A stretch of DNA of 25,057 nucleotides from a virus (Duplodnaviria > Caudoviricetes): positions 1 through 25,057 of IMG/VR virus record IMGVR_UViG_3300044709_000135, one strand, 5' to 3'. Position numbers and translations under genes: made by a program. Position 1 is the first letter of the stretch; each line of letters begins with the position of its first letter. Of this stretch, positions 1 through 17,464 are shown one piece after another. A model generated the notes under the pieces. That model did not search any database. It saw only the letters and a list, made by a program, of their open reading frames with translations, and was not told the origin of the DNA.

Positions 1-1
1 C

Positions 2-322
2 GTCCCCCTCACGGACATCGTCGAAGCCTGGACCGGCGCGTTGCCGTTCACCTTGAAGGCGGACGGCACGCCCGTCGATCTGACCGGCCTCGTCGTCTCG
101 ATCGTGCTGAAGGACGCCGCGGGCACCGTCATTCGAGACACCACCAGCGGGGTCACCGTGACGAACGCGACCGGCGGGCAACTGGACTACGGTCCGTCCA
201 GCAGCGACTTCACCGTGAGCGGGACGCCGTACCGCGTACGGTTTCAGGTGAAGGACGCGCAGCAGAAGATCGTCTATTTTCCGAACGGTGATGAGGGGCT
301 CATCAACGTGAGGCCGCGATGA
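2..322 (+). CDS. Virion-associated beta-rich protein (BppU N-terminal-like), probably truncated at the window edge
   Basis: The frame is open from position 2 (VPLTDIVEAWTGALPFTLKADGTPVDLTG...). Its stop overlaps the next start (ATGA at 319-322). Confidence 0.55.
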   Translation, partial: VPLTDIVEAWTGALPFTLKADGTPVDLTGLVVSIVLKDAAGTVIRDTTSGVTVTNATGGQLDYGPSSSDFTVSGTPYRVRFQVKDAQQKIVYFPNGDEGLINVRPR

Positions 323-924
323 GCGAGTACGAGCTCGGCGCCCTCGTCGTCGTCACGCCCTCCACCGCGGAGCCGATTACGCGGTCCGAGGTGAAGCTGT
401 GGCTGAAAGTCGAGGAAGACGAGACGGCCGATGACGGACTGATCGATGGTCTCATCACGATGGCGCGCCAGCGCTTCGAAGAACGCCGGCGTCGGTCACT
501 GTTGAAACAGACGTTCGATTACGCGCTCGACGAGACGCCGTGCGCCGAGATTGTGCTGCCGCGATCGCCGCTCATCAGCGTGACGTCGATCAAAGGCTTC
601 TCGTCGACGGATCTGACCGACACGGGCGGCACGGCGATGAGTACCTCCGGCTTTTACGTGGATACCGCGCATGTCCCCGGACGCGTCGTGCCGACCGGGT
701 CGTTCTCGTATCCGTCGGCGACGCGCACGATCAACGCCGTGATCGTCCGCTTCACGGCGGGCTACAGCACGTCGAGCACTGGCGTCCCGGAGGCAGCCAA
801 GGTGGAGTTGAAGCAACTCGTCGCCGGGCTCTACGAGCATCGCGGCGACAGCGCGGCGATGGCCGACGTGCTCGATCGGTTCGACCAGGAGCCGAGCGAC
901 TTTGATTTGCCGGACTGGGGCTAG
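319..924 (+). CDS. Head-tail connector (HK97 gp6 / phiE125 gp8-like)
   Basis: EPITRSEVKLWLKVE...DDGLIDGLITMAR, LPRSPL, RFTAGY...VPEAAK...LYEHR motifs. First gene of the neck cluster. Confidence 0.9.
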   Translation: MSEYELGALVVVTPSTAEPITRSEVKLWLKVEEDETADDGLIDGLITMARQRFEERRRRSLLKQTFDYALDETPCAEIVLPRSPLISVTSIKGFSSTDLTDTGGTAMSTSGFYVDTAHVPGRVVPTGSFSYPSATRTINAVIVRFTAGYSTSSTGVPEAAKVELKQLVAGLYEHRGDSAAMADVLDRFDQEPSDFDLPDWG

Positions 925-1272
925 ATGCCGTACCAGCGAACACCGACGCCGATTGGGTCGCGCCGCGAGCTCGTGCGGCTGCAGCGGCCGTCGACGTCGG
1001 ATGACGGCATGGGCGGCCAAGGGCCTGGCGCCTGGACTGACGTCGCGCAGCCGTGGGCCAACGTGACACCGCTCGATGATCGCAGCCGCGAAATGCTCGC
1101 GGCGAATCAGATCACGGCGCTGCACGCGTACCACGTCGATATCCGCTATCGGACCGGCGTGCGGCCGACGATGCGGCTGCTGTGGCGCGACAAGACGTTG
1201 CAGATTCAGTCGCTCGCGGACGACGACCAGCGCCGGCGCCGATTGATTCTGCTCTGCACGGAGGTCCAGTAA
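925..1272 (+). CDS. Head closure / head-tail adaptor (SPP1 gp16-like)
   Basis: IGSRRELVRLQRP...DGMGG...W...WANV...IRYR..V.PTMR...L.C.E pattern; position after the connector. Confidence 0.9.
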   Translation: MPYQRTPTPIGSRRELVRLQRPSTSDDGMGGQGPGAWTDVAQPWANVTPLDDRSREMLAANQITALHAYHVDIRYRTGVRPTMRLLWRDKTLQIQSLADDDQRRRRLILLCTEVQ

Positions 1273-1275
1273 ACG

Positions 1276-1701
1276 ATGCCGACGAGACGGTCTTCAGTCG
1301 AAGCGGTGTTGACGGCGATCGTCAGCGCGCTGAAGTCGAGCACCGGCGTGACCGGCGTGGCGACGGGCGGCATCTACAACAACGTGCCGCAGAACACGCC
1401 GTATCCGTACGTCGTCGTGACCTCGCCGACGGGTCGGCCGTCCGACACGTTGGGCAGCCTGGGGAGTTCGGTGCTCGTGGATCTACGCGCCGTCAGTCAA
1501 TACGCCGGCGACAAGGAAGCGGCGCAGATCATCGACCAGTGTCAGCGGGCGATCAACTTTCAGAAGCCGGCGGTAAGTGGCCATCGGATCTGTGCGCTGA
1601 ATCTCGAGAGCGAGGAGCGCTACCAGGAGTTGGTCAACGCGATTCCGACGCGGCACCACGTCGCGACGTTTCGCGTCTGGACGGAGCAGAGCTCGTCATG
1701 A
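1276..1701 (+). CDS. Tail terminator / completion protein (DUF3168-like)
   Basis: IYNNVPQNTPYPYVVV motif, HHVATFRVW C-terminus, synteny. Confidence 0.85.
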   Translation: MPTRRSSVEAVLTAIVSALKSSTGVTGVATGGIYNNVPQNTPYPYVVVTSPTGRPSDTLGSLGSSVLVDLRAVSQYAGDKEAAQIIDQCQRAINFQKPAVSGHRICALNLESEERYQELVNAIPTRHHVATFRVWTEQSSS

Positions 1702-1904
1702 CGGACGAACAGTTCGTGGCGATCGCCGGCTTGCTGACCGCGATCCGCGATGCGCTCGTGCCGGCGCCCGAGCCGCCGGCGACGGATCCGCCGACGTGTG
1801 CGCATCCGGAAGAGGCGCGCGTGTCGTTCGCGACGCTGCGCGATCCGCAGCACTGGCTGTGCCGGTTGTGCCGGCACGAGAACCGCGGCGTGCCCGTGGT
1901 GTAA
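1698..1904 (+). CDS. Small putative zinc-finger protein (68 aa)
   Basis: The ATG at 1698 overlaps the upstream stop (ATGA). The protein has C-x-H...CRLC, ending CRLCRHEN. It is the real 3' part of the listed 1182..1904 ORF. Confidence 0.7.
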   Translation: MTDEQFVAIAGLLTAIRDALVPAPEPPATDPPTCAHPEEARVSFATLRDPQHWLCRLCRHENRGVPVV

Positions 1905-1921
1905 GGATTCACGCGATCGCA

Positions 1922-2009
1922 GAGGCCCTGAGAGGCCGTTCACTTTTGTTTCGAGGCCCCGTCACGCGCGAAGAGGCCCTAACGCGCAGTGCCGGGGCCT
2001 TTTGTTTGT
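1922..2009 (+). promoter_or_regulatory. GAGGCC-repeat structured leader, copy 1 (upstream of the tail tube gene)
   Basis: GAGGCC at 1922, 1932, 1953 and 1973. Hairpin AGGCCCCG(1954-61)/CGGGGCCT(1993-2000) with inner GCGCG/CGCGC and loop AAGAGGCCCTAA, followed by TTTGTTTGT. Confidence 0.7.
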
Positions 2010-2031
2010 GCCCCGAGGGGAGATCTGACCG

Positions 2032-2478
2032 ATGCCGACTGGAAAACATACCTTCGAACAGGCGCTGATCACGCTGAACGGCGTCGACGTCACGCAGGAC
2101 GTCAATCAGGCCGAATTGCTGATCGGTCGCCGCAGTCCCGTGGATGTCACGGGCCTCGCCGACTCGTACGAGCAATTCATCGCGCCCAACATCCGGCGTT
2201 GGGGCGTGAAGCTCAATTACTTTCAGAACTTCTCCTCGAGCGGCATCTACCAGACGCTCAAGACGATGCTGCAGAGCTCGTCGGGGTCGACCGGGTTCGC
2301 GTTCCTGCTGCGCACGTACTCGACGGAGGCGCGGAGTTCCTCGAATCCCGAATGGACCGGCAGCGTCGGAATCGACGGCGACTTCCAGCTCGTCGCCGGC
2401 AGCGAAGGCGAGGCCAACAAAGGATCCGTGTCGCTCAAGGGGATGAGCACGCTGACGTTTCTGACCAGCTCGTCGTAA
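2032..2478 (+). CDS. Major tail (tube) protein
   Basis: 148 aa beta-rich protein with VDVTGL.D.Y..FIA and SNPEWTG motifs. It precedes the chaperone and tape measure genes and has a GAGGGGAG RBS. Confidence 0.85.
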   Translation: MPTGKHTFEQALITLNGVDVTQDVNQAELLIGRRSPVDVTGLADSYEQFIAPNIRRWGVKLNYFQNFSSSGIYQTLKTMLQSSSGSTGFAFLLRTYSTEARSSSNPEWTGSVGIDGDFQLVAGSEGEANKGSVSLKGMSTLTFLTSSS

Positions 2479-2483
2479 CCCGA

Positions 2484-2510
2484 AGGGCCGGCGGATCGCC
2501 GGCCCTCTTG
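2484..2510 (+). terminator. GC-rich hairpin after the tail tube gene (weak terminator or mRNA stabiliser)
   Basis: AGGGCCGGCG-GAT-CGCCGGCCCT, a perfect 10-bp stem. The tail is only CTTG, so termination would be leaky. Confidence 0.55.
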
Positions 2511-2522
2511 TGAAAGGACCGT

Positions 2523-2918
2523 ATGGCTCTCTCTCGTGAAGCGTTACTCGGCGCCGTCGACGTGCCGACGAAGACCGTCGATATTCCGGAGCTCGGCGAC
2601 AGCGTCATCGTGCGCGGCATGACCGGGCGCGAACGCACGATCTTCGAAAAGAAGTTCGTCACCGAGCGCCACGGCAAAACGAAGCGCAACTTCGATGCGT
2701 ACCGGGAGCAGATCTGCATCTTCTGCTGCGTCGAGCCGCGGTTGACCGAGGCGGATCTCGAACGCCTGTCACTCGTCCGCGCCGATGTGATCGACCGCAT
2801 CGCGACCGAAGCGATGAAGCTGTCCGGCATCACGGAAAAGGACGTTGACGAATTGGGGCAGAGTTCCGCGCCGACGACAGCTTCCTCTTCCACGTCTTCA
2901 GTCTCGCCCACGAACTGA
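2523..2918 (+). CDS. Tail assembly chaperone (gpG-like)
   Basis: LSREALL...VDIPELG..V.VRGMTGRER motif; lies between the tube and tape measure genes. Confidence 0.85.
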   Translation: MALSREALLGAVDVPTKTVDIPELGDSVIVRGMTGRERTIFEKKFVTERHGKTKRNFDAYREQICIFCCVEPRLTEADLERLSLVRADVIDRIATEAMKLSGITEKDVDELGQSSAPTTASSSTSSVSPTN

Positions 2919-3058
2919 AGATGACGGCGGGGCAGCTGCTGCGCGACACCACGTCGATGGAGCTCACGATGTGGTTCGCGTATTTCGAGGCGCGGGAATG
3001 GCGGCGGGAACGCGAGGACAAAGAACGCGAGATAGAACGTCGGATTCTCGGGGAGTAA
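2849..3058 (+). CDS. gpT-like C-terminal extension of the tail chaperone (-1 frame)
   Basis: The -1 frame is open from after TGA 2846-48 to TAA 3056-58: ...FLFHVFSLAHELKMTAGQLLRDTTSMELTMWFAYFEAREW..., a typical gpT pattern. It is not in the ORF track. Confidence 0.75.
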   Translation, partial: RIGAEFRADDSFLFHVFSLAHELKMTAGQLLRDTTSMELTMWFAYFEAREWRREREDKEREIERRILGE

Positions 3059-3062
3059 TCAC

Positions 3063-3461
3063 GTGGCTGACGCCGGCGTCACGATGACGGGCTTGAAGGA
3101 CATGCGGGCGGCCGTTCAGCAACTGCCGAAGGCCGTGACGGAACGCCTACGCGCGGTCGCGTGGCGCAAGGCCCGTGACGTGCGTGCCGGCGCCATGGAC
3201 CGATTGCGTGCGAAGACGCATGGCACAGGCAAAACTGCGAGTTCGATCGTGGTCATCGAGGAAACGGAGCACAAGCGGTTCGTCGTCGCCGTCCGCGGCG
3301 ATCCATCGCACCCGGCGAACCTGCCGCTCTGGCTCGAGAAGGGCACTGTGACGATGACGGCGCGTCCGTACATGCTGCCGGCACTGGAAGCCGTTTCGGA
3401 TAGCTATGTCAAAGAGTCCGAGGCGGCCGCCGTTGACGCCGCGCGCGAGGCGTTGACGTAG
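3063..3461 (+). CDS. HK97 gp10-like neck/tail component
   Basis: MTGLKDM..., TGKTASSI, LEKGTVTMTARPYMLPALE match the E.GT..M.ARP..RPA pattern of the gp10 family. Confidence 0.85.
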   Translation: MADAGVTMTGLKDMRAAVQQLPKAVTERLRAVAWRKARDVRAGAMDRLRAKTHGTGKTASSIVVIEETEHKRFVVAVRGDPSHPANLPLWLEKGTVTMTARPYMLPALEAVSDSYVKESEAAAVDAAREALT

Positions 3462-6400
3462 ATGGCAACCATCAACGCGATGATTCGGTGGGCCGACAAC
3501 ACCGACGAGTTGAAGCGCAATCTCGCCGAGGGCCTCGACCAGGTGGAAGCGCTGCGCGCCGGCGCCGACCGCATGGTGAAGTCGCTGGGCGGCGAGAAGC
3601 TCCTCCAGTCAGCGAATAACCTCACGGCGGCCGTCGACAAAATCGGCGGCGCCGCGAAGCTCACCGAGGCCGAACAGGCGCGCGTCAACGCCACCCTCAC
3701 GAAAGCCATCGACAAATACGAGGCGCTCGGGAAAACCGCGCCGCCGGCGATGCTAGCGCTCCAGAAAGCGACCGAGCAGCATCCATCGCTGCTCAATCGC
3801 ATCACGACTGCCCTCGGCCCGCTCGGCACGGCGATGGCGGCGGCCTTTTCGGTCACCGCTGTCATTGCCGCCGGGAAGAAAGTGATCGACTTCGCCAGTC
3901 ACCTCACTGACCTCTCACAGAAGACTGGCATCAGCACGACCGGTCTGCAGAAGCTGGACCTCGCGTTCGAGCAAAACGGCATCAGCCTCGATACCGTGAC
4001 GACGGCGACAACGAAGCTCGCGAAGAATCTCGTCGATGGTGACAAGTCCGCAGTGGGTGCGCTCACAAAGCTCGGCCTGTCAGTTGGCGAGCTGAAACAG
4101 ATGGCACCGGAAGATCAGTTCGTGAAGGTCGCCGACGCGGTCGGCAGAATTCAGAACCCCACCGAGAAGGCCTACGCGGCGATGGCGATTTTCGGCAAGG
4201 GCGGCGCCGAGTTGCTCGCTGGTCTCGATGGTCACCTGAAAGAGACGACCGACAAATTCGAAGCGATGGGTCTGATCATCGACGAGAAGACAATCAAAGC
4301 GGCAGACGACTTCGGCGATCAGTTGGGACTGATGGGAAAGCAACTGCTCGGCATCGTCGCAACCGTCGTCGGTCCGCTCCTTCCGGCGCTCAGCGGATTG
4401 GGCAGCGTGCTGATGTGGCTCGGGCAGAACGTTATTGGTCCGGTTTTCACGTACTCAATCAAGGCAGCGCTGACCGTCATCGAAATGTTTTGGGCCGGGC
4501 TCGCGACGCTGCTCGCACACCTCGCGGACCTGGCGCAGAAGATTCCGATCGTCGGCAGTCATCTCGGCGCACTCACGAAAGCCAGCGATTGGCTAAAGGA
4601 TAGCGCCGCGCTCACGACGAAGCACGTCGATTCGCTATGGCGCGCTACTGATACTGTCGGCCAGAGCGCGAAGAAGGCGACACCGCACTTGATCGGCCTG
4701 GGCGAGCTGCCGGATGGTCCGCTGAAGTCGCTGCTGCATAACCTCGAAGAAATGGTCACGAAGCTCACGCCGCTGCCGGGCCATTTTGTGCTGGTGAGCA
4801 CGCAGGTCCACACCTTCGGCGACGAAGCGGCGAAGCTCGTTCAACAGGCAGACGCGATGGGCGTCAAGGTGCCTGAAGCCGTCCGCAAGATCGCCGCGGC
4901 GTGGAACGCTGCGGAGATCAACAAACTGATGAATACAGCGACGGCCAAGTGGCTAAAGGACCTTGACGAGTTCGCGCAGAAGGGCGGCGAGAAGCTCGAG
5001 GCGGCGGCCAAAAACATGGCCGACGCGATTATCAAGAATGACGACCTCATGCGGACGTCGCGCCGCGACACGTCCCAACTCGTGCAGCAGTACGCGTTGA
5101 GCGATTTTGAATTCCAGATCGCGCAACTGCTTCGCTGGCGCGAAGAACAGAAGAAGGCCGTCGATCGGCATGCGGCCAATTCGCGCGAGACGTTTGCCGC
5201 GATCGACGACGATTTCGCCGCCAAGATGGCACTCATGGTGCGCACGCACAACGACGCGCTCGCCGAGATGGAAGCCAAAGAACACAGCTGGCGGAACATC
5301 CTGATCGGGACCTTCGCGGATATTCCGAACTTGTTGAAATCGGCGTTCACAGGCGGCGGTGGGCTGAGCGGTGCGCTCAGTGCGCTCGTTAGCGGCCTCG
5401 GCGGAAATATCGGCGGCAAACTCTTCGAGGCCGGTGGTGCGCTGAATGGGATCGGCAACACGCTCACGGGTGGGATGTCGAAGATCTTTGGCAGTTCGAT
5501 CGGCACCGCATTCGGGCTCGCGCTACCCGGCATTGGTTCGGCCGTCGGCGCGCTTGCTCCAGTGATCCTGTCTGGTTTCAAAAAACTGTTTGGATTCGGC
5601 CCGTCCGAGCTCGACAAGACGCACAAGGCGCTCAACGACTTTATCAACGGCGCCGGCGGACTTGCGACGCTGCAGCAGAAAGCTGCGGAGGCCGGGCTCA
5701 GTCTCAACGCCCTCTACGCCGCGCGCGATCAGAAAGCCTTGAAGAGCGCCATCGATGCATTCAACCAGGGGCTCGAACGTCACAAGCAGCTGCTCGCCGA
5801 CATCGCGACCGGTATCGATGGCGTCCTTTCGGCCGCGCAGGGGCTGGGCGGCAGCGTCCCGTCCGCGCTGAAGCCGATGATCGAGTCGCTCCTGCAGTCG
5901 AAGAATCTCACCGAGGAGCAACGGAAGGCGCTCAGCGATCTCGCGAACCGCGGTCCTGACTACGACAAGTTGACCGAGGCCGCGAAGAAGTACGGCCTCT
6001 CGCTCGCCGACCTGGGACCGAAATTTCAGCAGGCGGCGCTCGACAAGTTGTCGTTCGAATACGCCGACGATTTCCGGCAACTCGTCGACGCCGGCGCGAA
6101 CGCCGACAACGTGATCAAGGGCATGGCGCCGAAGATCCAGAAGTTGATCGATACGTCGGTGGAGTTCGGCGGCACCGTGCCGGAGAGCATGCGACCGCTG
6201 CTGCAGAAAATGGTCGATCTCGGCTTGTTGGTCGACACGAACGGTAAGAAGTTCGACGACCTCAGTTCGTTCAACTTCAACGACAGCAAGTCACCGCTCG
6301 ACATCGCGACCGACAAGCTGGTCAAAGCGATCGAGCACCTCGGCGAGATCCTCGCGGGTCTGCCAGGCGTCGCGCAGAATGCGGCCGGCGGGATCGCTGG

Positions 6401-6815
6401 CGCGCTCAATTCGATTCCCAGCGAGAAACACGTCACCGTCTATATCGACGAAGTCGGGAGAGGCACCGACTACGCCGCCCGCGGCGGGCTCGTGACGGGC
6501 TCCGGGATTCAGTACCTGGGCGGCGGCGGCACGGTGCTGCCATTCGTACCGCGTGGCAGCGACGTCGTGCCGGCGATGCTCACGCCGGGTGAAGGCGTCG
6601 TGAACACCACGGGCATGGGAATCCTTGGCCGCGGCGGCCTGCGCGCGCTGAATAGCGGTGGCCAGGTCGTCGACATGTCGGAAATCAAGGCGATGCGCAA
6701 AGCCGTCGAACGCCTCGAGGCGCGGATGACCGACGACAGCCGTCGGCAAGCCGAACGCCTCGGGCTCGCATTAAGCAACGCCTTGATTCGTGCGAAGGCG
6801 AGCGGTGGACGATGA
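3462..6815 (+). CDS. Tail tape measure protein (1117 aa)
   Basis: Long Ala/Leu-rich helical protein with LSQKTG.ST..LQ, A.AIFGK.GAELL and a C-terminal ARGG...GSDVVPAMLTPGE.V motif. Confidence 0.95.
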   Translation: MATINAMIRWADNTDELKRNLAEGLDQVEALRAGADRMVKSLGGEKLLQSANNLTAAVDKIGGAAKLTEAEQARVNATLTKAIDKYEALGKTAPPAMLALQKATEQHPSLLNRITTALGPLGTAMAAAFSVTAVIAAGKKVIDFASHLTDLSQKTGISTTGLQKLDLAFEQNGISLDTVTTATTKLAKNLVDGDKSAVGALTKLGLSVGELKQMAPEDQFVKVADAVGRIQNPTEKAYAAMAIFGKGGAELLAGLDGHLKETTDKFEAMGLIIDEKTIKAADDFGDQLGLMGKQLLGIVATVVGPLLPALSGLGSVLMWLGQNVIGPVFTYSIKAALTVIEMFWAGLATLLAHLADLAQKIPIVGSHLGALTKASDWLKDSAALTTKHVDSLWRATDTVGQSAKKATPHLIGLGELPDGPLKSLLHNLEEMVTKLTPLPGHFVLVSTQVHTFGDEAAKLVQQADAMGVKVPEAVRKIAAAWNAAEINKLMNTATAKWLKDLDEFAQKGGEKLEAAAKNMADAIIKNDDLMRTSRRDTSQLVQQYALSDFEFQIAQLLRWREEQKKAVDRHAANSRETFAAIDDDFAAKMALMVRTHNDALAEMEAKEHSWRNILIGTFADIPNLLKSAFTGGGGLSGALSALVSGLGGNIGGKLFEAGGALNGIGNTLTGGMSKIFGSSIGTAFGLALPGIGSAVGALAPVILSGFKKLFGFGPSELDKTHKALNDFINGAGGLATLQQKAAEAGLSLNALYAARDQKALKSAIDAFNQGLERHKQLLADIATGIDGVLSAAQGLGGSVPSALKPMIESLLQSKNLTEEQRKALSDLANRGPDYDKLTEAAKKYGLSLADLGPKFQQAALDKLSFEYADDFRQLVDAGANADNVIKGMAPKIQKLIDTSVEFGGTVPESMRPLLQKMVDLGLLVDTNGKKFDDLSSFNFNDSKSPLDIATDKLVKAIEHLGEILAGLPGVAQNAAGGIAGALNSIPSEKHVTVYIDEVGRGTDYAARGGLVTGSGIQYLGGGGTVLPFVPRGSDVVPAMLTPGEGVVNTTGMGILGRGGLRALNSGGQVVDMSEIKAMRKAVERLEARMTDDSRRQAERLGLALSNALIRAKASGGR

Positions 6816-8341
6816 GCGTGGCGGCCTCAGTCCGAATTGACGCGCAGTTCAGTCCCGGGGTGTGGACCGACTTCGGCACCGATGTGATCGCGGACGCGGG
6901 GGTGCGATGGCGCCGTGGCCTGGCTAGCAATACGCCGCACGACCGCGTGGCACAACCCGGCACGCTCGAATTTTCCCTGCGGAACGACAAAGGCAATCTT
7001 GGAGGAACGGCCGGATGGTACTCGCCGAACCACGCGAGCTGCCGCACCGGGTTTACGTTCGGCATTCCGGTGCGCGTGGTCGCGAACGACGGCAGCGGCG
7101 ACAAGGTGCTGTGGCGCGGCCGACTCCGCACCATTGACCCGACGCCGGGGAAAGAGCTGACGCCTCGGACGATCTGCACGGCCCACGACGTCATCGGCGA
7201 CCTCGTCGAAGCCGACGTGCGATCGATTGCGCCGCAGGTCAGCCAGACCGAGGTGCAGCTGCTGCAGGCGGTGATTGCCGCCTTGCCGACTGACGCGCAA
7301 CCGCCGGCGACGAGCTACGACACGGCGGTCGACACCTACCCGTACGCGTTCGACGACATCGGCGGCGGCGTGAAGGCGATCGAGGCGCTCACGCGCGTGA
7401 CGGTCAGCGCACAAGGCCTCTTGTACGCGAAGGGCGATGGCACGCTGCGCTACGACAATCGACACTCGCTGACCCTCCGGACGAGCAGCGCCACGATTAC
7501 GGAAGCCTCGATCCTGGCGGATCGCGGCCTGGTCGTCCCGAGCACGCTCACCAACATCTTCAACCGCGTGCGGGTGACGATTCATCCGAAGACGCCGGCG
7601 GCGGCGACGGTGTTGTTCGCCTTGACGGGCGCCCAGTCGGTCGCGCCGGGACAGTCGGTCACGATCTGGGGTGACTATGCCGACCCGACCAATTCGCTGA
7701 AGTTGATCGGCGGCACGAGCTTCACGACGCCGATCGTCGCGACGACCGACTATCTCGGGAACGGCCAGGCGGATGGGAGCGGCGCGAATCTGACGTCGTC
7801 GCTCAGCATCGTCACCTCGGCGTTCGCCGCCTCGGTGAAGTTTGTCGTGACGAACACGTCGACAACCCAGACGGTGTGGATCACGAAACTCCAGCTGCGC
7901 GGGACCGCCATTTACGACAACGCGCCGCAGACGTTTGAATCGTTCACGGCGCAGACCTACGGCGATCGGCCGCTCGACGTCGATCTCACGTACCAGAACG
8001 ACGGACTCGTCGCGCAGGATCTCGCCGATTATTTGAAGGCGCAGTACTTGAACCTCGGCGATCAGATCGACGAGTACGCCTTCGATCCGCAGGTGTCGAG
8101 CACGCTGATGACGCAGGCGTTGACGCGCGAGATCGGCGACGTCATCACGCTCTCCGAAACGATCACGGGGCTGTCGAGCGTGCCGGCGATGATCATCGGC
8201 ATCGAAGGCTCCGCCGCGGCCGGCTCGTGGCTGCGCCACCGGTTCTACTTGGCGCCGAAAACGGTCGGGTCGGTGTTCGTGTTCGACGATGCCGTCCTCG
8301 GCGTCTTCGATGCCGCTGATGCGCGGTTCGGGTACGCCTGA
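6812..8341 (+). CDS. Minor tail / tail-tip hub protein
   Basis: Coupled to the TMP (ATGA overlap). Beta-rich, with GLLY..GDG.LRY..R, IFNRVRV and EIGDVITL motifs as in tail-tip proteins. Confidence 0.8.
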   Translation: MSVAASVRIDAQFSPGVWTDFGTDVIADAGVRWRRGLASNTPHDRVAQPGTLEFSLRNDKGNLGGTAGWYSPNHASCRTGFTFGIPVRVVANDGSGDKVLWRGRLRTIDPTPGKELTPRTICTAHDVIGDLVEADVRSIAPQVSQTEVQLLQAVIAALPTDAQPPATSYDTAVDTYPYAFDDIGGGVKAIEALTRVTVSAQGLLYAKGDGTLRYDNRHSLTLRTSSATITEASILADRGLVVPSTLTNIFNRVRVTIHPKTPAAATVLFALTGAQSVAPGQSVTIWGDYADPTNSLKLIGGTSFTTPIVATTDYLGNGQADGSGANLTSSLSIVTSAFAASVKFVVTNTSTTQTVWITKLQLRGTAIYDNAPQTFESFTAQTYGDRPLDVDLTYQNDGLVAQDLADYLKAQYLNLGDQIDEYAFDPQVSSTLMTQALTREIGDVITLSETITGLSSVPAMIIGIEGSAAAGSWLRHRFYLAPKTVGSVFVFDDAVLGVFDAADARFGYA

Positions 8342-8346
8342 GCCCT

Positions 8347-8423
8347 GAGGCCCCGCGAGGCCGACACATTCCTGAGAGGCCCTTCGCTGCGCATGAGGCC
8401 CTGAAGCGCAGAGCACGAGGGCC
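8347..8423 (+). promoter_or_regulatory. GAGGCC-repeat structured leader, copy 2
   Basis: GAGGCC at 8347, 8357, 8376 and 8395. Hairpin GGCCCT(8378-83)/AGGGCC(8418-23) with inner CTGCGC/GCGCAG and loop ATGAGGCCCTGAA. It ends at the GTG start at 8424. Confidence 0.7.
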
Positions 8424-8864
8424 GTGGTTCCGTTTCTCCTGACGCCGCGCGAACACCACAACGTCAGCTCGCTCGAGGAGTACCGCGAGCGGCAGGCCGC
8501 CACCATCGCGGAGCGGCGCCGCCGCGGTGCGCGGTACGAGCTCCACGACGTCGAGACGCCGATCGAGGCGCGCGTCGACGCCGGCACGTGGCTGGTCGAC
8601 TGCGAATGCGGCGCCGGCAATGCCACGGATCCCGCCTGGGGTGTCGCGTGCTGTTTCGGCTGCGGCGCGATTCACACGACCGTCGTGTTCCCGGCACCGC
8701 GTACGTGTGAGGCCATCGAGCGGCTGCTCGTGGCGCGGCCCAAGCCGATCGATCGGGCCTGGCGGCCGGGCGAATCGCTCGTCGATTTGATGCGCGAGAA
8801 CCGCGACCACGGCTTCGACATCCCGGTGAGTGTCGAGCCGTGCGTGCATGGCGGTGACGCGTGA
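8424..8864 (+). CDS. Cys-rich (putative zinc-binding) tail-region protein
   Basis: W.VDCECG...CCFGCG; GTGA overlap with the next gene. Confidence 0.7.
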   Translation: MVPFLLTPREHHNVSSLEEYRERQAATIAERRRRGARYELHDVETPIEARVDAGTWLVDCECGAGNATDPAWGVACCFGCGAIHTTVVFPAPRTCEAIERLLVARPKPIDRAWRPGESLVDLMRENRDHGFDIPVSVEPCVHGGDA

Positions 8865-9358
8865 GCTTCACCGCCTATGCGACGGCTGTCGCCGGCTCGA
8901 TTTTGACCGCCGCGTTTTGGAATCAGCAGGTTCGCGACAACGGCAACGTGCTGAAGACATCGATCGCTGACGATGGCACGCTCGCGTCGACGGGCGGCAT
9001 CCTCACGACACCCGAGCTCAAGGCGTACAAGGAAACGAAAACGGGGCCGTCGATCTCCAGCGGCACGCTGACGCTCGATTACTCGACCGGCAACAACTTC
9101 GGCGGCGTCACCCTGAATCAGAACATCACGACCTACAGCGTGACGAATCCTCCGGCGAGCGGCAAGGCCGGGTTCTACACGGTCGTGTTCATCGGCGATG
9201 GCACGCAACGGACGATCACGTGGCCGGGATCGCACAGGTTTCCCGGTGGTGTGGCGCCGACGCCGACGGCCACGAACAGCAAGCTCGACGTGTATTCGTT
9301 CCAGACGTACGACGGCGGCGGAAATTGGCTGTGCGTTGGAATCGCGCAGAACCTCTGA
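8861..9358 (+). CDS. Short tail fibre / minor tail protein
   Basis: N-terminal TAVAGSILTAAFWNQQVRDN anchor motif and C-terminal TWP...FPGGVAPT.T....DVYSF.TYDGG.NW beta domain. Confidence 0.75.
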   Translation: MSFTAYATAVAGSILTAAFWNQQVRDNGNVLKTSIADDGTLASTGGILTTPELKAYKETKTGPSISSGTLTLDYSTGNNFGGVTLNQNITTYSVTNPPASGKAGFYTVVFIGDGTQRTITWPGSHRFPGGVAPTPTATNSKLDVYSFQTYDGGGNWLCVGIAQNL

Positions 9359-10224
9359 TGGGGATCCACGGGCGGATGAGCGGGCCGTTGCTGAGTTACT
9401 CGGGGCCGTCGAGTGGGCTGATCAACCTCGCTTCGACCGCGAAGGGCTCGGCATTCCTTGGCATGGCTGCCGGTACATGGACCATCACGGTCACCGGGAG
9501 GGTCACGCTCTCCGTTGATGCCGCGGCGGGCGGCGGCGGTGGTGGCGGCGATACGACTGGCAGTTTAGCCGGGTGCGGTGGCGGCGCCGGTGGTGGCGTG
9601 TCGAAGCTGACGCCGATCGCGATGGTGCCCGGCAAGACGTACACGTTCACGGTTGGCGCAGCTGGGACCGGGACGACCGCGACCGGCAATGCCGGCGGCA
9701 ACACGACGGTGTCCGACGGCACGACGACGTTCATCTCGCTCGGCGGCGGCGGCGGCGGCACGGGGCCGGGCGGCGCGCAGTCAACGGGCGGCGCCGCGAC
9801 GACCGGGAGCAATCTCGTCGCAGGCGGCAATGGCAACAGCGGCGGGGGCGGGGGCGCGAGTGGCAACGCCGGCCTCTGTAACAACAACGGCGCAGGCGGC
9901 GGCGGTGGCGGCTCCGGCACTGGTGCGCCGGGCACGCAGGTCGGCGGCCAAGGCGGACCGACCGTGACGGCCGGCACGACTCCAGCGGGCGCAGCTGGAG
10001 GCGCCGTCGGCGCGAACGGCGGCACCGGCACCGGCGGGGCGACCGGCGGTGGCCAGAACGGCCAGGGCGGCGGCGGTGGTGGTGCGTCAGGCTCGCTGCT
10101 CTCGGACGGTGGCTACTACGGCGGCGGCGGCGGCGGCGCAGGCGGACAGGACGGCTTCGGCAACGTGACCGGCGGCAATGGCGCGCCGGGCGCGTGCGTG
10201 CTGACCTTGACGAGCATTCCGTAA
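9358..10224 (+). CDS. Glycine-rich tail fibre-like protein (288 aa)
   Basis: The likely start is ATG 9358 (TGATG overlap). Many poly-Gly runs (GGGGGGA), ending GGNGAPG.C..T. Confidence 0.8.
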   Translation: MGIHGRMSGPLLSYSGPSSGLINLASTAKGSAFLGMAAGTWTITVTGRVTLSVDAAAGGGGGGGDTTGSLAGCGGGAGGGVSKLTPIAMVPGKTYTFTVGAAGTGTTATGNAGGNTTVSDGTTTFISLGGGGGGTGPGGAQSTGGAATTGSNLVAGGNGNSGGGGGASGNAGLCNNNGAGGGGGGSGTGAPGTQVGGQGGPTVTAGTTPAGAAGGAVGANGGTGTGGATGGGQNGQGGGGGGASGSLLSDGGYYGGGGGGAGGQDGFGNVTGGNGAPGACVLTLTSIP

Positions 10225-10252
10225 CGACGACAACGACAACAAGGGGGCGGCG

Positions 10253-10543
10253 ATGGCGGTGGGACTGAATGTAACCAAGCAAGACGTCGACATCGTGGCG
10301 GGATCGATCGCGAAGGACTTGAACATGACCTTCGGGCGCATCACGTCATTCAAGGCGTGGCTCGACTCGAAGACCGACGCCGAGCTGATCACGCTCGGGT
10401 ACGTGCAGGCCGACGTCGACGCCCTGCGATCCGCGTACGGCGACGCGAATCAGCTCGCGACGATTTTCAACGGCACCGCGACGCTGGGGGTCGCGAAGGA
10501 TTTCCGCACGTTCCTGAAGCGTGTGTGGGGGCTCGGGTCCTGA
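10253..10543 (+). CDS. Hypothetical phage protein (possible fibre chaperone)
   Basis: Natural amino acid composition, AAGGGGG RBS, located after the fibre genes. Confidence 0.7.
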   Translation: MAVGLNVTKQDVDIVAGSIAKDLNMTFGRITSFKAWLDSKTDAELITLGYVQADVDALRSAYGDANQLATIFNGTATLGVAKDFRTFLKRVWGLGS

Positions 10544-10561
10544 TCCCGGGAGGACACGACG

Positions 10562-10918
10562 ATGGGCGAACTCACACACGACGATCTGCGCGCGGCCACC
10601 GCCGACATCAAGGCGTACGTGCGGGATCGATTCGACGGAATCGACGGGCGACTCGATCGACTGAACGGCTCGGTGTCGCGGCACGAGCGCGAGCTCGGCG
10701 AGAACTCCCAATCCATTCGCAATCTCGAGAAGGAAGTCTTCGATCGCCAGCCACGCAGCGCGGTCCCTGAGGATCAACAGCCTGTCGTGAGTCGCGGCGA
10801 TATCAAGAAAGTGGTGGGCGCGATAACGTTGATGGGCGCGGCGGCCGAAGTCTTCCACCAGCTCGGATCGTGGCTCTGGTCGGTCCTGCCCGTGCTGATG
10901 CGTGCCGGAGCGAAGTGA
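10562..10918 (+). CDS. Coiled-coil plus C-terminal hydrophobic protein (holin/hemolysin XhlA-like, tentative)
   Basis: GGGAGG RBS, heptad region (LDRLNGSVSRHERELGE) and a hydrophobic C-terminus. Confidence 0.55.
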   Translation: MGELTHDDLRAATADIKAYVRDRFDGIDGRLDRLNGSVSRHERELGENSQSIRNLEKEVFDRQPRSAVPEDQQPVVSRGDIKKVVGAITLMGAAAEVFHQLGSWLWSVLPVLMRAGAK

Positions 10919-11301
10919 AGGTCGTCGGCCCGTGCCTCGTCTTCGTGGTGTACGTGCTGCTGACGCTCCTGCATCTCGCGGCCGCGGCGCCGCGTGTGCG
11001 ACTCGACGTGATGCCGCTCCGCACGATCGGACCGATTGATGCCTGGCATGTGCGCGCCTGGGTCGAGCGCGACGATCTGAATCGAACGCTCCGCGTGGAA
11101 GCGCATGCCGACAGCTACGACCGCGCGACCGAGCTCCCGCTGAACGGCAGCTTCGCGCCGCGTGTCCTGGACGTCTGGTGGACCGGCCGCGTGCCGTGCG
11201 GCGAATACGTTGTGGCTGCCAGCATCCTCGGACCGAGCCGGCAGCTGCTCCGGCAGACGCGCACGCGTGCGGAGATTTGCGTTGTCGCGGAGGGGCCTTG
11301 A
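10915..11301 (+). CDS. Putative exported beta-rich protein
   Basis: GTG 10915 overlaps the upstream stop (GTGA). Signal-like N-terminus CLVFVVYVLLTLLHLAAAA. Confidence 0.65.
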   Translation: MKVVGPCLVFVVYVLLTLLHLAAAAPRVRLDVMPLRTIGPIDAWHVRAWVERDDLNRTLRVEAHADSYDRATELPLNGSFAPRVLDVWWTGRVPCGEYVVAASILGPSRQLLRQTRTRAEICVVAEGP

Positions 11302-11331
11302 CGGATCGGCGGAAACGCCCTCCCGCCCGAC

Positions 11332-11706
11332 CTACGCGCGATCGGTTTGAACCTGCCTGATGTTCGAGGTATCGACGATCCTCAGCGCGTGCCACAGATC
11401 GTAGTCGACCTGCAGCGACAGCCACAGCCGCGGATCCGTTCCGCTCAACGCGCCGAAGAGTACGGCGGTTTCGGCGGTCACGCTTCGCTTGCCGGCGACG
11501 ATCTCGTTGAGGCGATTCGTCGACATGCCCATCCGGCGCGCGGCCTCTGCCTGGCTGATGCCGGAGGGCTTGCGGTATTCCTCCTCGAACATCTCGCCGG
11601 GATGCGTCGGTGGTCGACGCATCCGCGCGAGATCCGCGCCGTCGTCCTGCGGCCGCGGCCGCTCAGCTCGTTTTGCGGCCGTGGTAGTTGTCGATCTCGA
11701 CGGCAT
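11332..11706 (-). CDS. higA: HigA-family antitoxin (Xre HTH)
   Basis: PTHPGEM...SQAEAARRMGMSTNRLNEIVAGKRSVTAETA...WLSLQVDYDLW. The true start may be the later MRRPPTHPGE. Confidence 0.95.
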   Translation of the reverse strand: MPSRSTTTTAAKRAERPRPQDDGADLARMRRPPTHPGEMFEEEYRKPSGISQAEAARRMGMSTNRLNEIVAGKRSVTAETAVLFGALSGTDPRLWLSLQVDYDLWHALRIVDTSNIRQVQTDRA

Positions 11707-11971
11707 ATGCGTCTCCGTCCGTGAACTGGAAGATCAACCGATAGCGGTCGTTGATCCGCATGCTGCTGAAGCCGGGCCGGTCGTATTTCAGCGGCTCGAA
11801 TCGCGAGCCGGGTAGCGCGCTCAGATCCTGCGTGGTCTTCGCGTTGTGCAGCAGCGTCATCTTGCGCTGCGCGGGTTTCCAGACGTCCTTCGGAATGCGG
11901 CGAGCGGCTTTCGTATTTAGGCCGTGGTAGATGTCCGAGGTCGTGTCGTTCGCGAAACTCTTGATGGCCAT
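11663..11971 (-). CDS. higB: HigB / RelE-family toxin (plasmid maintenance killer type)
   Basis: IKSF....T..IY...DL...PGSRFEPLK.DRPG..SMRINDRYRLIF.F..GDAY.VEIDNYH, in toxin-first gene order. Confidence 0.95.
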   Translation of the reverse strand: MAIKSFANDTTSDIYHGLNTKAARRIPKDVWKPAQRKMTLLHNAKTTQDLSALPGSRFEPLKYDRPGFSSMRINDRYRLIFQFTDGDAYAVEIDNYHGRKTS

Positions 11972-12022
11972 CTTCTCTCTCCCTTGCGGGCGGCGTGATT
12001 GCCAACCGATTTAATTGAGACA

Positions 12023-12908: not shown

Positions 12909-13739
12909 TTACGCGGCGAGTAGGTCGGCGTCGACGGCGTCGTCGACGACGCGGCCGGCACGAAGGATCGTGTCGGCCGCCTTGAAAATCTTCTGCGCGC
13001 TCCGCTCGGCGATCGGCGCGTGGCCGTTCCGCGCGTTCCAGTGCTGGATGTAGCCGCGGCAGTGCTCCGCGCCGGCGAGACCGAGCGCCTCGAGGCAGAC
13101 CAGCGCGACCGCCTCAGCCTCGACTTCGCGGATACTGCGCGGCGTGTGCTCGCCGTCGGTCATCTCGTGCTCAGTGGTGTGGCCAAGCACGACGTGCGCG
13201 AGCTCGTGAAACCGCGTCTTGTGCGGGAGCTCGGCGATCGGTGAGACCGCGATCGAACGCTGACGCGCGTAGCCCTGGCAGTTGCCATCCGTCATCGTGA
13301 ACGGTTCCTCCGTGACGCCGAGCGCCGTGAGCGCGATCGACGTGTCCCAGCCCGCGATCGCCGGCGTCGTGAACGTGGCGCCGTCGGTCTGACTCAACAC
13401 GAACCAATGCGGCCGGTAGATGAACCGCGTGAACGCCTGCGGCTGTTCGTCAGGCTCCGGCGCGTCGTCGGTCGACCGGCGCTTGCAGGTGACCGGCATG
13501 CACAGCACGATCGCCTTCTCGCCCTTGCGCACGGAGCGGCCGAGGGCCTTCCAGTGCAGGAAGGTCGCGATGGGTCCCGGCTCGATGCCCCGGGCGAAGC
13601 ACTGCACGAGCGCGAGCAGCTGGTTACCGATGCTGTAGCCGTGGAACAACGAGTACGCGCGGGAGATCAAGCCAGGTTCCGAAACCGCTTTCTCGAGGAG
13701 GGTGGCGAAATCGAAGGTCGTCGGATTCGTCTGGGCCAT
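12909..13739 (-). CDS. ardC: ArdC-like protein (ssDNA-binding N-domain plus zincin metallopeptidase-like domain)
   Basis: YSIGNQLL, ATFLHWKALGRSVRKGEKAI, FVLSQTDG, HELAH (HExxH) and REVEAEAVA...YIQHW motifs. Confidence 0.85.
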   Translation of the reverse strand: MAQTNPTTFDFATLLEKAVSEPGLISRAYSLFHGYSIGNQLLALVQCFARGIEPGPIATFLHWKALGRSVRKGEKAIVLCMPVTCKRRSTDDAPEPDEQPQAFTRFIYRPHWFVLSQTDGATFTTPAIAGWDTSIALTALGVTEEPFTMTDGNCQGYARQRSIAVSPIAELPHKTRFHELAHVVLGHTTEHEMTDGEHTPRSIREVEAEAVALVCLEALGLAGAEHCRGYIQHWNARNGHAPIAERSAQKIFKAADTILRAGRVVDDAVDADLLAA

Positions 13740-13901: not shown

Positions 13902-14645
13902 TCAATTAGTTACCGATTTTAGGCGCGACAAGCGCATTCTGGCGGCATCGCGCGTCACACGCCATCGTGATGCACACGCGCGCTCCGACCAGTTCAGCTC
14001 CTCAGCATCTTGGCGCCATTGAGAGCGCTCGTCGACGAGTTTAGGTGCCGTCTGCGCGAGCTTTCTTAGCGCCTCAATCGCGGCGAGTAGTTCTTCGCGC
14101 GTGAATCCCTCCGCGGCGGCTACGACTTGAGCAACGCGATCGCGCCATCCGTCGCCAAGTTTACGAAGGCGTTTGATCCGTGCCTGTCGTTCATGCTCTT
14201 CGCGACTCACACCCGTACGGGCGCGCACGATTGCACGCGCACCGACAGGATATTTCGTCTCGGTCCAAGCGTACCGTTCCCAGTACATCGTCAGACTCTG
14301 CGCGGCATGGGGATGCGCTGACGCGACTTCTAGAATCGATCGCCGATACCGCGATTCGCCGGTCCGACTCCTATCCATAGCGCTCGCGATTTCTGTTCGC
14401 TCCTCGGGTGTCAGATAAAATCGCGCGACGTCACGCGCATTGACGGTCTGCAGCGCGAGGAAGTAATCGAACTCGCCAGGATAAAAGTGATACGGCCCGG
14501 TAGCATCGCTGTAGTCACGCCAATCTTTCGAGCGCAACATGTCGACCGTAGCGCGCGTCAGGTCGCCAAGCCGTCCCATGTTCGGCACGTCGCGCGAGAA
14601 CTTGAGCACGTTCTCGCCATGTGTCCTCAGCGCCTTAGAGTTCAT
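13902..14645 (-). CDS. Hypothetical protein (247 aa) with a possible C-terminal HTH; partner of the HNH-helicase
   Basis: The likely start MNSKALR (ATG 14645) overlaps the helicase stop (ATGA). C-terminus WSERACASRWRVTRDAARMRLSRL. Confidence 0.7.
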   Translation of the reverse strand: MNSKALRTHGENVLKFSRDVPNMGRLGDLTRATVDMLRSKDWRDYSDATGPYHFYPGEFDYFLALQTVNARDVARFYLTPEERTEIASAMDRSRTGESRYRRSILEVASAHPHAAQSLTMYWERYAWTETKYPVGARAIVRARTGVSREEHERQARIKRLRKLGDGWRDRVAQVVAAAEGFTREELLAAIEALRKLAQTAPKLVDERSQWRQDAEELNWSERACASRWRVTRDAARMRLSRLKSVTN

Positions 14646-16747
14646 CGATCGCCGTCCTCCGTATGAACCCACTTTGGCAGCGCCGTGCCTGTTTGTTCGC
14701 AGTGCCGACGGATGCGCCACATCGCGGCGGCACACGCCTGTTTGAGTTGCTCGGGAGTCGCAGTGTCTAGTTTCCGAATGCCCGCCTGCCGATAGACCTC
14801 GACTCTAAAATGCTTCACCTGATCGCGCCCCTGCACTCCCGCAACCCATCTGGCCGCGTGGTCCAGCCGTTTGCGATAGACGTCGTGATGTTCCCGCGTA
14901 GTCAATCCGCGGCTCACCGGTTCAGGGCGTCTTGACACCGCGGCCGCTCCCAGTTGAACCGGCGGCTCGAAGGGCCGCGCCTGGTTGAAGTTCTCGATCA
15001 CTGCTTGGACACGTGGCCAGATTGATTCCGGCAGGTTCTGGGCTCGCAGCGCCGGCGCAAGCGTTTCTCCGATCGCGGGATCAGCATCGAATGTCCCGGT
15101 TGTACTAACGGCCGACACCACGTCGAGCTGGGCGTCAGCAACTCCGACAAGTTCTTTATCATGCCAGCCTGGCACCGATGTGCCGCGCGCCTGATCTTCC
15201 GGAGATATGGTCGACGATGCCGGCACTTCGATTTCGTGGACCATCGGCGCGAGGATTCCGACGAACTGTTCGACGAGCTCCTTCACGTCCGGCAGAATGA
15301 TTGCCGTCGTCAATGGGTGGCCGATCGCCTCACGCTCCCAAGGTGTGACACGTTGTGCACGCGCCACTACCTGCCGTATGTATTGCGCGGTCAGGACGTT
15401 CGTCGCGTACGTGACAACCGCGATCTCCGGACAGTCGTAGCCTTCGCCGGCCATTCCCACGGCGCATAGCACTCCGACGCGCTTTCTGAGTCGGAAGTTT
15501 TCCAACTTCCGATACGCGTCAGGGCCGTCAGCGGAAACGACGCATTCAGCCATCGGCAGGAGACCACGCGCGGACATTTGTCGATCGACCTCCTTCGCAA
15601 ACGTGCGGGCCATCTCTACTCGCTGCGTCACGATCAGCGCTTTAACAGGTCCGTTTCTGGTGTCTCGATGGCGGCGCTGGAGTTCATCAAGCGTCACCTT
15701 CACAAGTTCCTGAACCCATTCCTCTTTAAGATTCAGACCACGCAATACGACACGCGCATCATCGAGATCAGCGATCGCGCTCACAGTGATTTCAGCTTTT
15801 TTCAAATCGACGATGTCGACCGTGGCCCCTACACGGAAGAGATCGGGTGCGCGCAGTAAGCCTTCGCGGACCAACTGCTCGGGATGAATTTCGTAGTTCG
15901 TTCTCGCTTGAATGCGCGCCTCGCCGTGGTCGCCGACCACGTTGTCGTACTGAACCGTCGAAATCCGTTCGGTCGGCGAGGTCCGGAACAACGTTCCTGA
16001 AAGATTTAGGACGTGTGCGCTGAGTCCTGTCCGCTCGTCACCGACGAGCTCACGTATCGCCTTGGCCCACGCGGCTCCTCCATTGCTCTCGTCGTGCACA
16101 GGCTGTCCCAAATGGTGCACTTCGTCGAGGACGACGAGCGTCGCGGTGTTCAGTAACGCCGTACGATGTCCCTCGCGAACACGTGGCGAAAGAAGGGCTT
16201 GATAGGTATTACAAACGCCATCCATCTCCCTCAGTTCGAGTCCGCTCTGCCGCGCGGCAGCGTGTGTGTCAAGAGCGATATGGCACTCCGGCAGAAGCGC
16301 GCGCTGCCATTGTTTAACGAGGGGCACTCGAGGAACTAAAACGAGCAGCCGATTCCAAAGGCCCGCATCCTGTCCTCTGGCGAAGACTGCGCCGGCAAGC
16401 ACCGTTTTACCGGACCCAGGTGCCGCCATCACGGTCGCTAGCCGCTGCATAGTTAACGGCTCCAACACGCGGTCCAGCGCATCCCGTTGCCAGGCGCGAA
16501 GTGCCACGCGCGTGTCGAAAACGTCGCGGTTGCCGTTCTTCAGATTGCACGGCACGCACCACGCCTCGAGGTTTTCGATTACGGCAGGCCCGCCGTGGCT
16601 CGCCGCGCGCAAATGGGCAACATGGAAGTGATCCCATGTGATCGGCGCGCCGCAACTTTGGCGTTCGCAGATGCCGCGGCTTCGAGAAAAGAGTTGTCGT
16701 CGAAGGCCAGGCGAGATACGGCGCAGGTGACGTGATAACGCTGCCAT
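14642..16747 (-). CDS. HNH endonuclease - superfamily 2 (DExH) helicase fusion
   Basis: N-terminal C...C..HVAH....HGG....NL...CVPCN; then LRAWQ, APGSGKT, DEVH, SGT, GEGYDCP and QVVARAQR. AGGAGG precedes ATG 16747. Confidence 0.9.
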   Translation of the reverse strand: MAALSRHLRRISPGLRRQLFSRSRGICERQSCGAPITWDHFHVAHLRAASHGGPAVIENLEAWCVPCNLKNGNRDVFDTRVALRAWQRDALDRVLEPLTMQRLATVMAAPGSGKTVLAGAVFARGQDAGLWNRLLVLVPRVPLVKQWQRALLPECHIALDTHAAARQSGLELREMDGVCNTYQALLSPRVREGHRTALLNTATLVVLDEVHHLGQPVHDESNGGAAWAKAIRELVGDERTGLSAHVLNLSGTLFRTSPTERISTVQYDNVVGDHGEARIQARTNYEIHPEQLVREGLLRAPDLFRVGATVDIVDLKKAEITVSAIADLDDARVVLRGLNLKEEWVQELVKVTLDELQRRHRDTRNGPVKALIVTQRVEMARTFAKEVDRQMSARGLLPMAECVVSADGPDAYRKLENFRLRKRVGVLCAVGMAGEGYDCPEIAVVTYATNVLTAQYIRQVVARAQRVTPWEREAIGHPLTTAIILPDVKELVEQFVGILAPMVHEIEVPASSTISPEDQARGTSVPGWHDKELVGVADAQLDVVSAVSTTGTFDADPAIGETLAPALRAQNLPESIWPRVQAVIENFNQARPFEPPVQLGAAAVSRRPEPVSRGLTTREHHDVYRKRLDHAARWVAGVQGRDQVKHFRVEVYRQAGIRKLDTATPEQLKQACAAAMWRIRRHCEQTGTALPKWVHTEDGDR

Positions 16748-17020
16748 CGGGCGCGGCCTCCTGGACAAAAGATATGTGCGCCCGCGCGCGGCGTCGCCTG
16801 CGGTAATGTTGGATTCAGCTTTCGAATCGGCCTGCTACCACAGCGCCGAGCGAGGGCGAGAAACGGGGCGTCTTCTCACTAGGCGCTCCGTTTCGTTTCT
16901 ACAAAGCTCGTGTGGGTACTTACTGCGAGCCGCGCGCTTTTTCAAGCGAACAGTGAAAATATAAATGAACCGGTGCTTCGGACCCACACGGTCTCGAGCG
17001 GAGCAGCTGCCGGCGCCCGT

Positions 17021-17252: not shown

Positions 17253-17292
17253 TGCGACGGGGCTGACAGACTGAAATCGTTGATTCTAGAGG

Positions 17293-17348
17293 TGGTGCGG
17301 AAGGGGGGATTCGAACCCCCACGCTCTTGCGAGCGCCAGCCCCTCAAG
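17293..17348 (-). tRNA. 3' half of tRNA-Leu(GAG) = att core (not a full tRNA)
   Basis: Minus strand C-TTGAGGG-GCTGG-CGCTCGCAAGAGCG-TGGGGGTTCGAATCCCCC-CTTCCGC-ACCA gives the anticodon loop, long variable arm, T arm and CCA. The 5' anticodon stem, D arm and 5' acceptor strand are absent. Confidence 0.9.
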
Positions 17349-17464
17349 ACGCTCGGCGATTGTGACCGAACTCGACGCGAATCAGCGCGTTACAGCGAAA
17401 CCCATCCCATATGAGCCGTCGCGATGATGGCTGAATTCCTTCGCGTTTTGTCGCCGTTGGAACG

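Follow-up and report, generated by a model that had tools for sequence, protein, structure and literature searches.

Two intergenic regions of this phage genome carry the same run of GAGGCC boxes, one of them in front of a probable tail tube gene. The question that they raise is whether the boxes belong to a regulatory RNA and, if so, which protein reads it and what that protein would control. The window, meaning the whole stretch of DNA analyzed here, is a linear virus record of 25,057 nt that is 39% complete. Its source is a temperate siphophage, integrase-type and non-Mu, and its genes include a head-tail adaptor, head closure protein, tail chaperone (2523), fibre, and integrase in addition to those in Table 1. 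The DNA data sets with window sequence are soil and rhizosphere metagenomes, and no RNA data sets with it are listed. Reads from four runs showed no variant within the element and gained no sequence upstream of the window. No relatives were found among GenBank phages, and GTDB genomes yielded none for the 8424..8864 protein, the tube protein, or the Com family discussed below; an Atlas match for the small ORF at 1698..1904 (0.84, Acidobacteriota) is a weak host lead.

Several other features of the genome deserve mention. On the minus strand lie a HigB-like toxin and HTH antitoxin pair (11332-11971), an ArdC-like anti-restriction gene (12909-13739), a helicase fused to an HNH domain that is possibly a defence gene (14642-16768), and, near the integrase, a stretch at 17290-17350 that by eye resembles the 3' part of a tRNA gene and is a possible attachment site; ARAGORN called no whole tRNA there.

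Two copies of a two-hairpin element

The initial annotation had assigned both regions one architecture of four boxes and a final GGGCC, and its starts and spacings are confirmed. Boxes start at 1922, 1932, 1953, and 1973 in copy 1 (spacings 10/21/20, GGGCC at 1995-1999) and at 8347, 8357, 8376, and 8395 in copy 2 (spacings 10/19/19, GGGCC at 8419-8423). Third-order Markov simulations of the window never placed even three boxes inside 60 nt (0/300). Folding also agrees, in both copies, with the annotated pairing of box 3 with the final GGGCC and the placement of box 4 in the apical loop, and it adds a feature absent from that annotation: box 1 pairs with box 2 in a small 4-bp hairpin (hairpin 1), again in both copies. 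The copy 1 core folds at -31.4 kcal/mol (z -3.9), and none of 200 shuffles was as stable; the copy 2 core is weaker (-24.1 kcal/mol, z -1.35, with 17 of 200 shuffles as stable). A GC-rich stem runs directly into a U tract, itself interrupted, in copy 1 but not in copy 2, where the 3' arm reaches up to the GTG of 8424..8864 and sequesters that gene's ribosome-binding region.

Table 1. Positions of the element and of neighbouring features in the window
Feature	Position	Strand	Remarks
Tail terminator	1276-1701		
Small conserved 68-aa ORF	1698..1904	+	C-x-H...W-x-C-x2-C; not Com
Hairpin 1 (boxes 1 and 2)	1922..1938	+	GGCC stem, loop CUGAGA; Com-operator-type (CC-N3-GAG)
Long stem-loop	1953..1999	+	Box 3 (1953-1959) pairs with GGGCC (1995-1999); from folding
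Inner stem of long stem-loop	1966-1970/1983-1987	+	From folding and covariation
Box 4	1973-1979	+	Inside 12-nt apical loop 1971-1982
U-rich tail	2000..2009	+	TTTTGTTTGT; 7 T in 8; predicted intrinsic-terminator tail
Swing segment GCCCCG	2010..2015	+	Complement of 3' arm (1993-1998), weakly of ribosome site
Shine-Dalgarno-like GAGGGGAG of tube gene	2015..2022	+	9 nt before ATG 2032
Probable tail tube gene (regulated gene)	2032..2478	+	Between tail terminator and tail chaperone
Tape measure	3462-6815		
Copy 2 of the element	8347..8423	+	Same two hairpins, no U tail
Cys-rich 146-aa tail-region ORF	8424..8864	+	Downstream of copy 2; no family

The gene behind copy 1 is probably the tail tube gene, judging from its position and from weak fold matches, the best of which are tail-tube proteins (E 0.13-0.8); it had no family match and no PHROG hit. 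The gap before the chaperone gene contains a box-free, GC-rich hairpin followed by a short U-rich tail (2484-2512), and an ORF in another frame overlaps the chaperone end (2845-3087), as expected for the usual chaperone frameshift.

Relatives and covariation

A covariance model and a search of relatives, which the annotation had put forward as a check, recovered seven further copies in related phage contigs and a covarying inner stem, so that nine elements could be aligned. Pattern scans of viral contigs (37 loci, 120 of about 170 loci, and 10 loci) followed by a fold filter gave five distinct cores besides the two of the window; the L415 core equals that of L413 with different flanks, and L548 was found through a protein search, not through its fold. 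Broad box patterns matched mostly Glu-Ala codon repeats, which were filtered out, and a first pairing filter that passed 81 of 252 loci was too loose and was discarded. The resulting model, R1, scores 48-71 bits on the nine elements and no higher than 28 bits on 200 pattern-selected control loci, with the qualification that seven of the nine trained it, most had been chosen by the pairing filter, and five come from one metagenome sample. In the window R1 finds exactly two copies, also with filters off. Rfam gave no match in the window at E<=1 and none over the element in five relatives.

The relatives fall at two kinds of junction. Four elements (L141/L549, L547, L548, and L424) are placed between a Com-like gene, whose stop lies 16-24 nt before the element, and the major capsid gene; three others (L412, L413, and L415) occupy the position of copy 1, ahead of the tube gene. 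Hairpin 1 is present in seven of the nine and missing in L413 and L415.

With the relatives added, the inner stem is 92% paired over 51 alignment cells, and five of its six pairs show two-sided compensatory changes; no shuffle of 500 paired as well, and six slid registers came nowhere near. Since the rows were aligned to R1 and most had been selected for pairing, the cleanest covariation evidence is the comparison of L547 with L548, which have near-identical flanks and 98%-identical Com proteins yet different inner stems that both pair. An arm swap points the same way: native arms average -12.1 kcal/mol and swapped arms -7.7, with the native partner best for five of eight. The annotation had read structural selection from the two window copies alone, whose inner stems differ yet pair; that evidence was thin before the relatives were included, since both share a GCGC inner core.

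All nine elements keep box 4 in full and the GA of box 3 unchanged, including where these bases are unpaired, and each places box 4 in the OFF-fold loop. The spacing from box 3 to box 4 is 19-20 nt in eight of nine, and that from box 2 to box 3 ranges from 15 to 28 nt. This combination of invariant bases with one fixed and one variable spacing argues for RNA recognition and not for DNA helical phasing. A DNA operator, in which the boxes would be repeats phased by helical turns for a DNA-binding regulator, is accordingly very improbable: the window copies do have spacings near 1, 2, and 2 turns, and a G-U strand asymmetry test (8 vs 8) does not favour the sense strand, but the intervening stem covaries, the spacing drifts among relatives, and no sigma-70-like promoter was found in 1-12000.

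The element comes and goes among close relatives. Among seven nonself loci orthologous to the tube junction, the model matched three (two of them nearly identical), L416 has a reduced form with two boxes, and L414, L417, and L418 have none; from this absence we conclude that the tube junction does not require the element. A tube tree of eight rows did not tell gain of the element from its loss. The 8424..8864 protein recurs at 12 loci, of which one is this phage and one is without upstream DNA. In the remaining 10, boxes are absent and the upstream stop codon is separated from the start by no more than 6 nt, so copy 2 lies at a junction where the relatives rely on stop-start overlap. In the reduced form of L416 (2618-2667), boxes 3 and 4 pair together, and a hairpin over the ribosome site of the tube gene follows. 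In L412, the tail chaperone gene has its ribosome site occluded by an isolated operator-type hairpin (1416-1431). The junction before the tube gene also looks like a spot for mobile insertions: in L415, an HNH-AP2 endonuclease gene (PF13392; 3747-4250) that is absent from the near-identical L413 separates the U tail from the tube gene, and in L417, a NUMOD3/DUF559 endonuclease-like gene (3678-4487) takes the place of the element.

A probable Com-type partner and a proposed refolding switch

The likeness that bears most directly on the protein partner is to phage Mu Com. According to PMC6483171, the recognition motif of Com is CC(N)2-3GAG within a hairpin loop, its Mu target is a hairpin with a 4-bp stem and the loop CUGCGA, and Com activates by melting an inhibitory structure. 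Hairpin 1 shares this stem-loop geometry, with loops CUGAGA in copy 1 and CCGCGA in copy 2, and CC(N)2-3GAG lies in the loop at 1924-1937, at 8349-8362, and in seven of nine elements overall. The bipartite SELEX motif GAG-N2-CC-N2,3-GAG-N2-CC is complete in L141 and has G for C as its last base in both window copies. The GAG-N2-CC motif that the annotation had given for Com agrees with PMC6483171; box 2 (GAGGCCG) does not fit it.

In the four head-module loci with a Com-like gene, that gene follows the head protease, and the order is com-like gene, element, capsid gene. PF10122 scores above its cut-off in two of the four (L141 and L424) and below it in L547 and L548. All four loci returned for the Com alignment have the element just downstream, a count that is largely circular because three of the four were the query itself. 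The Com family has 39 aligned members, 11 of which match PF10122 at E 0.01, and several were named Com by their source; one of these, P0063, misses PF10122 at E 0.01. The contigs that encode P0063 and the closest homologues of the 1698..1904 and 8424..8864 proteins are all 62,149 nt long, and the equal lengths suggest that they are one and the same. The L418 capsid protein is 81% identical to that of L178, and L418 continues into homologues of the first genes of the window (neck and tube), so it joins the capsid-type and tube-type loci; its head module precedes the neck genes by about 6 kb. An operator-shaped hairpin, a covarying stem, and a Com-like gene directly upstream in four head-module loci support the proposed Com-type structured RNA acting in cis. 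As no com gene occurs in the window, from a 39%-complete contig, we infer the Com partner.

The annotation had pointed instead to the two neighbouring Cys-rich ORFs, and these are poor candidates for the RNA binder. Both are adjacent to an element and have conserved Cys/His residues. The 1698..1904 type of ORF precedes the tube gene in eight of eight loci, with an N-terminal helix and a C-x-H/C-x2-C site; it also stands before tube genes without the element. Its likeness to the Com-family profile has a probability of 0.6%, Pfam gives no family, and its predicted model matches no solved fold. A viral-contig search for further relatives of the 8424..8864 protein returned none, and its homologues lack an upstream element in 10 of the 10 nonself loci having upstream DNA. 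With four elements adjoining Com-like genes instead, either neighbour is hardly credible as the binder.

We favour, with modest confidence, the reading that the element is a conserved, folded late-operon RNA leader, likely a switch opened by a Com-type zinc-ribbon protein predicted in the missing head module. Without Com, box 3 would pair with GGGCC in a terminator-like hairpin, and the swing segment would lean on the ribosome site (OFF). Com would bind hairpin 1 and boxes 3 and 4 as these emerge and so keep box 3 from GGGCC; the freed 3' arm (1993-1998) would then take the swing segment (2010-2015), letting polymerase read on and opening the ribosome site (ON). In relatives, com stands ahead of its own element, so that Com would accumulate before releasing the high-copy capsid and tube genes; made from the head module, it would act in trans on the tail copies. 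Copy 2, being without a U tail, would act on translation only. The direction of control, its level, and its gating of termination and translation are parts of this model and are put forward as such.

What, then, favours gating of transcription? The copy 1 stem had been likened to an intrinsic terminator, and its z-score of -3.9 and 7 T in 8 fit, but a simple terminator scanner did not call the site; the rules of that scanner take loops of 3-8 only, and the loop and bulges here are atypical. At least 5 T in 8 follow the stem in seven of nine elements, the exceptions being copy 2 (3/8) and L549 (1/8). In copy 1, the terminator fold is 6.5-12 kcal/mol more stable than the forced alternatives, so the protein would have to act during transcription. 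Predicted pairing of box 3 with box 4 in the nascent RNA is 0.55 in copy 1, at most 0.16 in five of nine elements, and likely in only four of nine.

Evidence at the ribosome site concerns the other half of the model. Six of the seven elements tested have, ahead of the ribosome site, 5-7 nt complementary to the 3' arm (in copy 1, 2010-2015 with 1993-1998), with single p values of 0.0015-0.36 and a combined value of 2.5e-4, computed post hoc on related sequences. Pairing between the swing segment and the ribosome site is predicted as well: it is strong in L547, L548, and L424, where the anti-ribosome-site hairpins reach -11 to -19 kcal/mol, and weak in copy 1 (-4.8 kcal/mol); predicted structure over the ribosome site is strong in copy 2 as well. 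With box 3 masked, the computed cost to open the ribosome site is lower in seven of eight elements and higher in L412. In copy 1, the cost falls from 7.3 to 5.9 kcal/mol, and to 3.2 when hairpin 1 and box 4 are masked too. Box 3 is the best mask in no element, ranking 3 to 71 of about 90 (23rd of 90 in copy 1, 71st of 89 in L412). These swing-segment and masking computations give the predicted refolding switch moderate backing at most.

The strongest alternative, though an unlikely one, is that Com acts on translation only, as in Mu, with the long stem as a translation-inhibition structure and the U tails as spacers. The scanner result, the two elements without a U tail, and the strong hairpins over the ribosome sites of L547, L548, and L424 would fit this reading, but a T-rich stretch is kept right after the stem in seven of nine elements, and the copy 1 stem ends 15 nt before the ribosome site. 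Less likely again is a Com of opposite sign, which would stabilise the long hairpin through loop box 4 and damp capsid and tail output as a negative stoichiometry feedback. Box 4, displayed in the OFF-fold loop at a nearly fixed distance from box 3, would suit such a role, as would the isolated L412 hairpin over the ribosome site of a chaperone gene; against it, Mu Com opens inhibitory structure (PMC6483171, in its accessible parts), and the element is OFF by default with no other opener in view. We consider improbable a protein-independent terminator, processing site, or mRNA-stabilising stem whose boxes are by-products of a GC-rich palindrome. The stable stem with its U tail, the self-complementarity of GGCC, and the close relatives that manage without the element are all compatible with it, but unpaired box 4 and the GA of box 3 stay invariant while paired inner-stem bases change, and the element stands directly behind Com-like genes.

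Returning to the Com-opened leader, a wider proposal can be built on it, which we offer tentatively and would not yet bet on. A distant Com subfamily would be the master late-gene activator of an uncultured siphophage family, and a portable four-box RNA module, gained and lost at capsid, tube, and tail junctions, would couple read-through and ribosome access in one refolding. At 8341-8424, it would provide regulated initiation instead of a stop-start overlap. Com would then be a general RNA-level antiterminator, with mom control in Mu as a special case.

Relation to known systems

In the open literature covered, no description of the element was found; the passages and most supplementary files of PMC10690425 and the accessible main text of PMC5737381 contain none, and an unnamed candidate listing in other supplements is possible. 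What appears new here is the swing segment, predicted to be able to pair either with the 3' arm of the stem or with the ribosome site of the tube gene. In print, Com has a single known role, the translational activation of a DNA-modification gene. An element that covaries and occurs at several sites before capsid and tail genes offers a direct test of whether this 58-residue family also overrides terminators and times virion synthesis; if true, this would be a mode of late control distinct from N, Q, or late sigma factors. An element of <110 nt with a tiny protein is easy to test and could serve as a compact RNA switch.

In RNA antiterminators of the BglG/LicT RAT type, a protein-bound RNA fold overlaps and excludes an intrinsic terminator. 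The fold proposed here would likewise exclude one; it differs in having no Rfam match, another box sequence, another candidate protein, and a putative coupling to a ribosome-site switch. The lambdoid N/nut and Q systems work by late antitermination, and here too, the virion genes downstream would be unlocked by a phage protein that is made before them. Unlike those systems, there is one element per regulated junction, and the action would be local refolding and not polymerase modification.

The closest parallel is Mu Com/mom (PF10122; PMC6483171 and PMC3299994, in their accessible parts). Shared with it are the hairpin of 4 bp, its C-N3-GA loop, the tandem GAG..CC motifs, a predicted inhibitory structure neighbouring a ribosome site, and, in the relatives, a small four-Cys zinc-ribbon gene directly upstream. 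In those parts of PMC3299994, Com homologues are described only before mom or methyltransferases. The targets here are capsid, tube, and tail-region genes and not mom or a DNA methyltransferase, so that one defining feature of the Mu system is lacking, and there are several sites per genome. The long covarying stem, loop box, and U tail set the element apart and make control of transcription likely as well, and its Com would belong to a distant subfamily acting in trans on the tail copies. The element is real, and it is probably a variant of Com-type control on virion genes.
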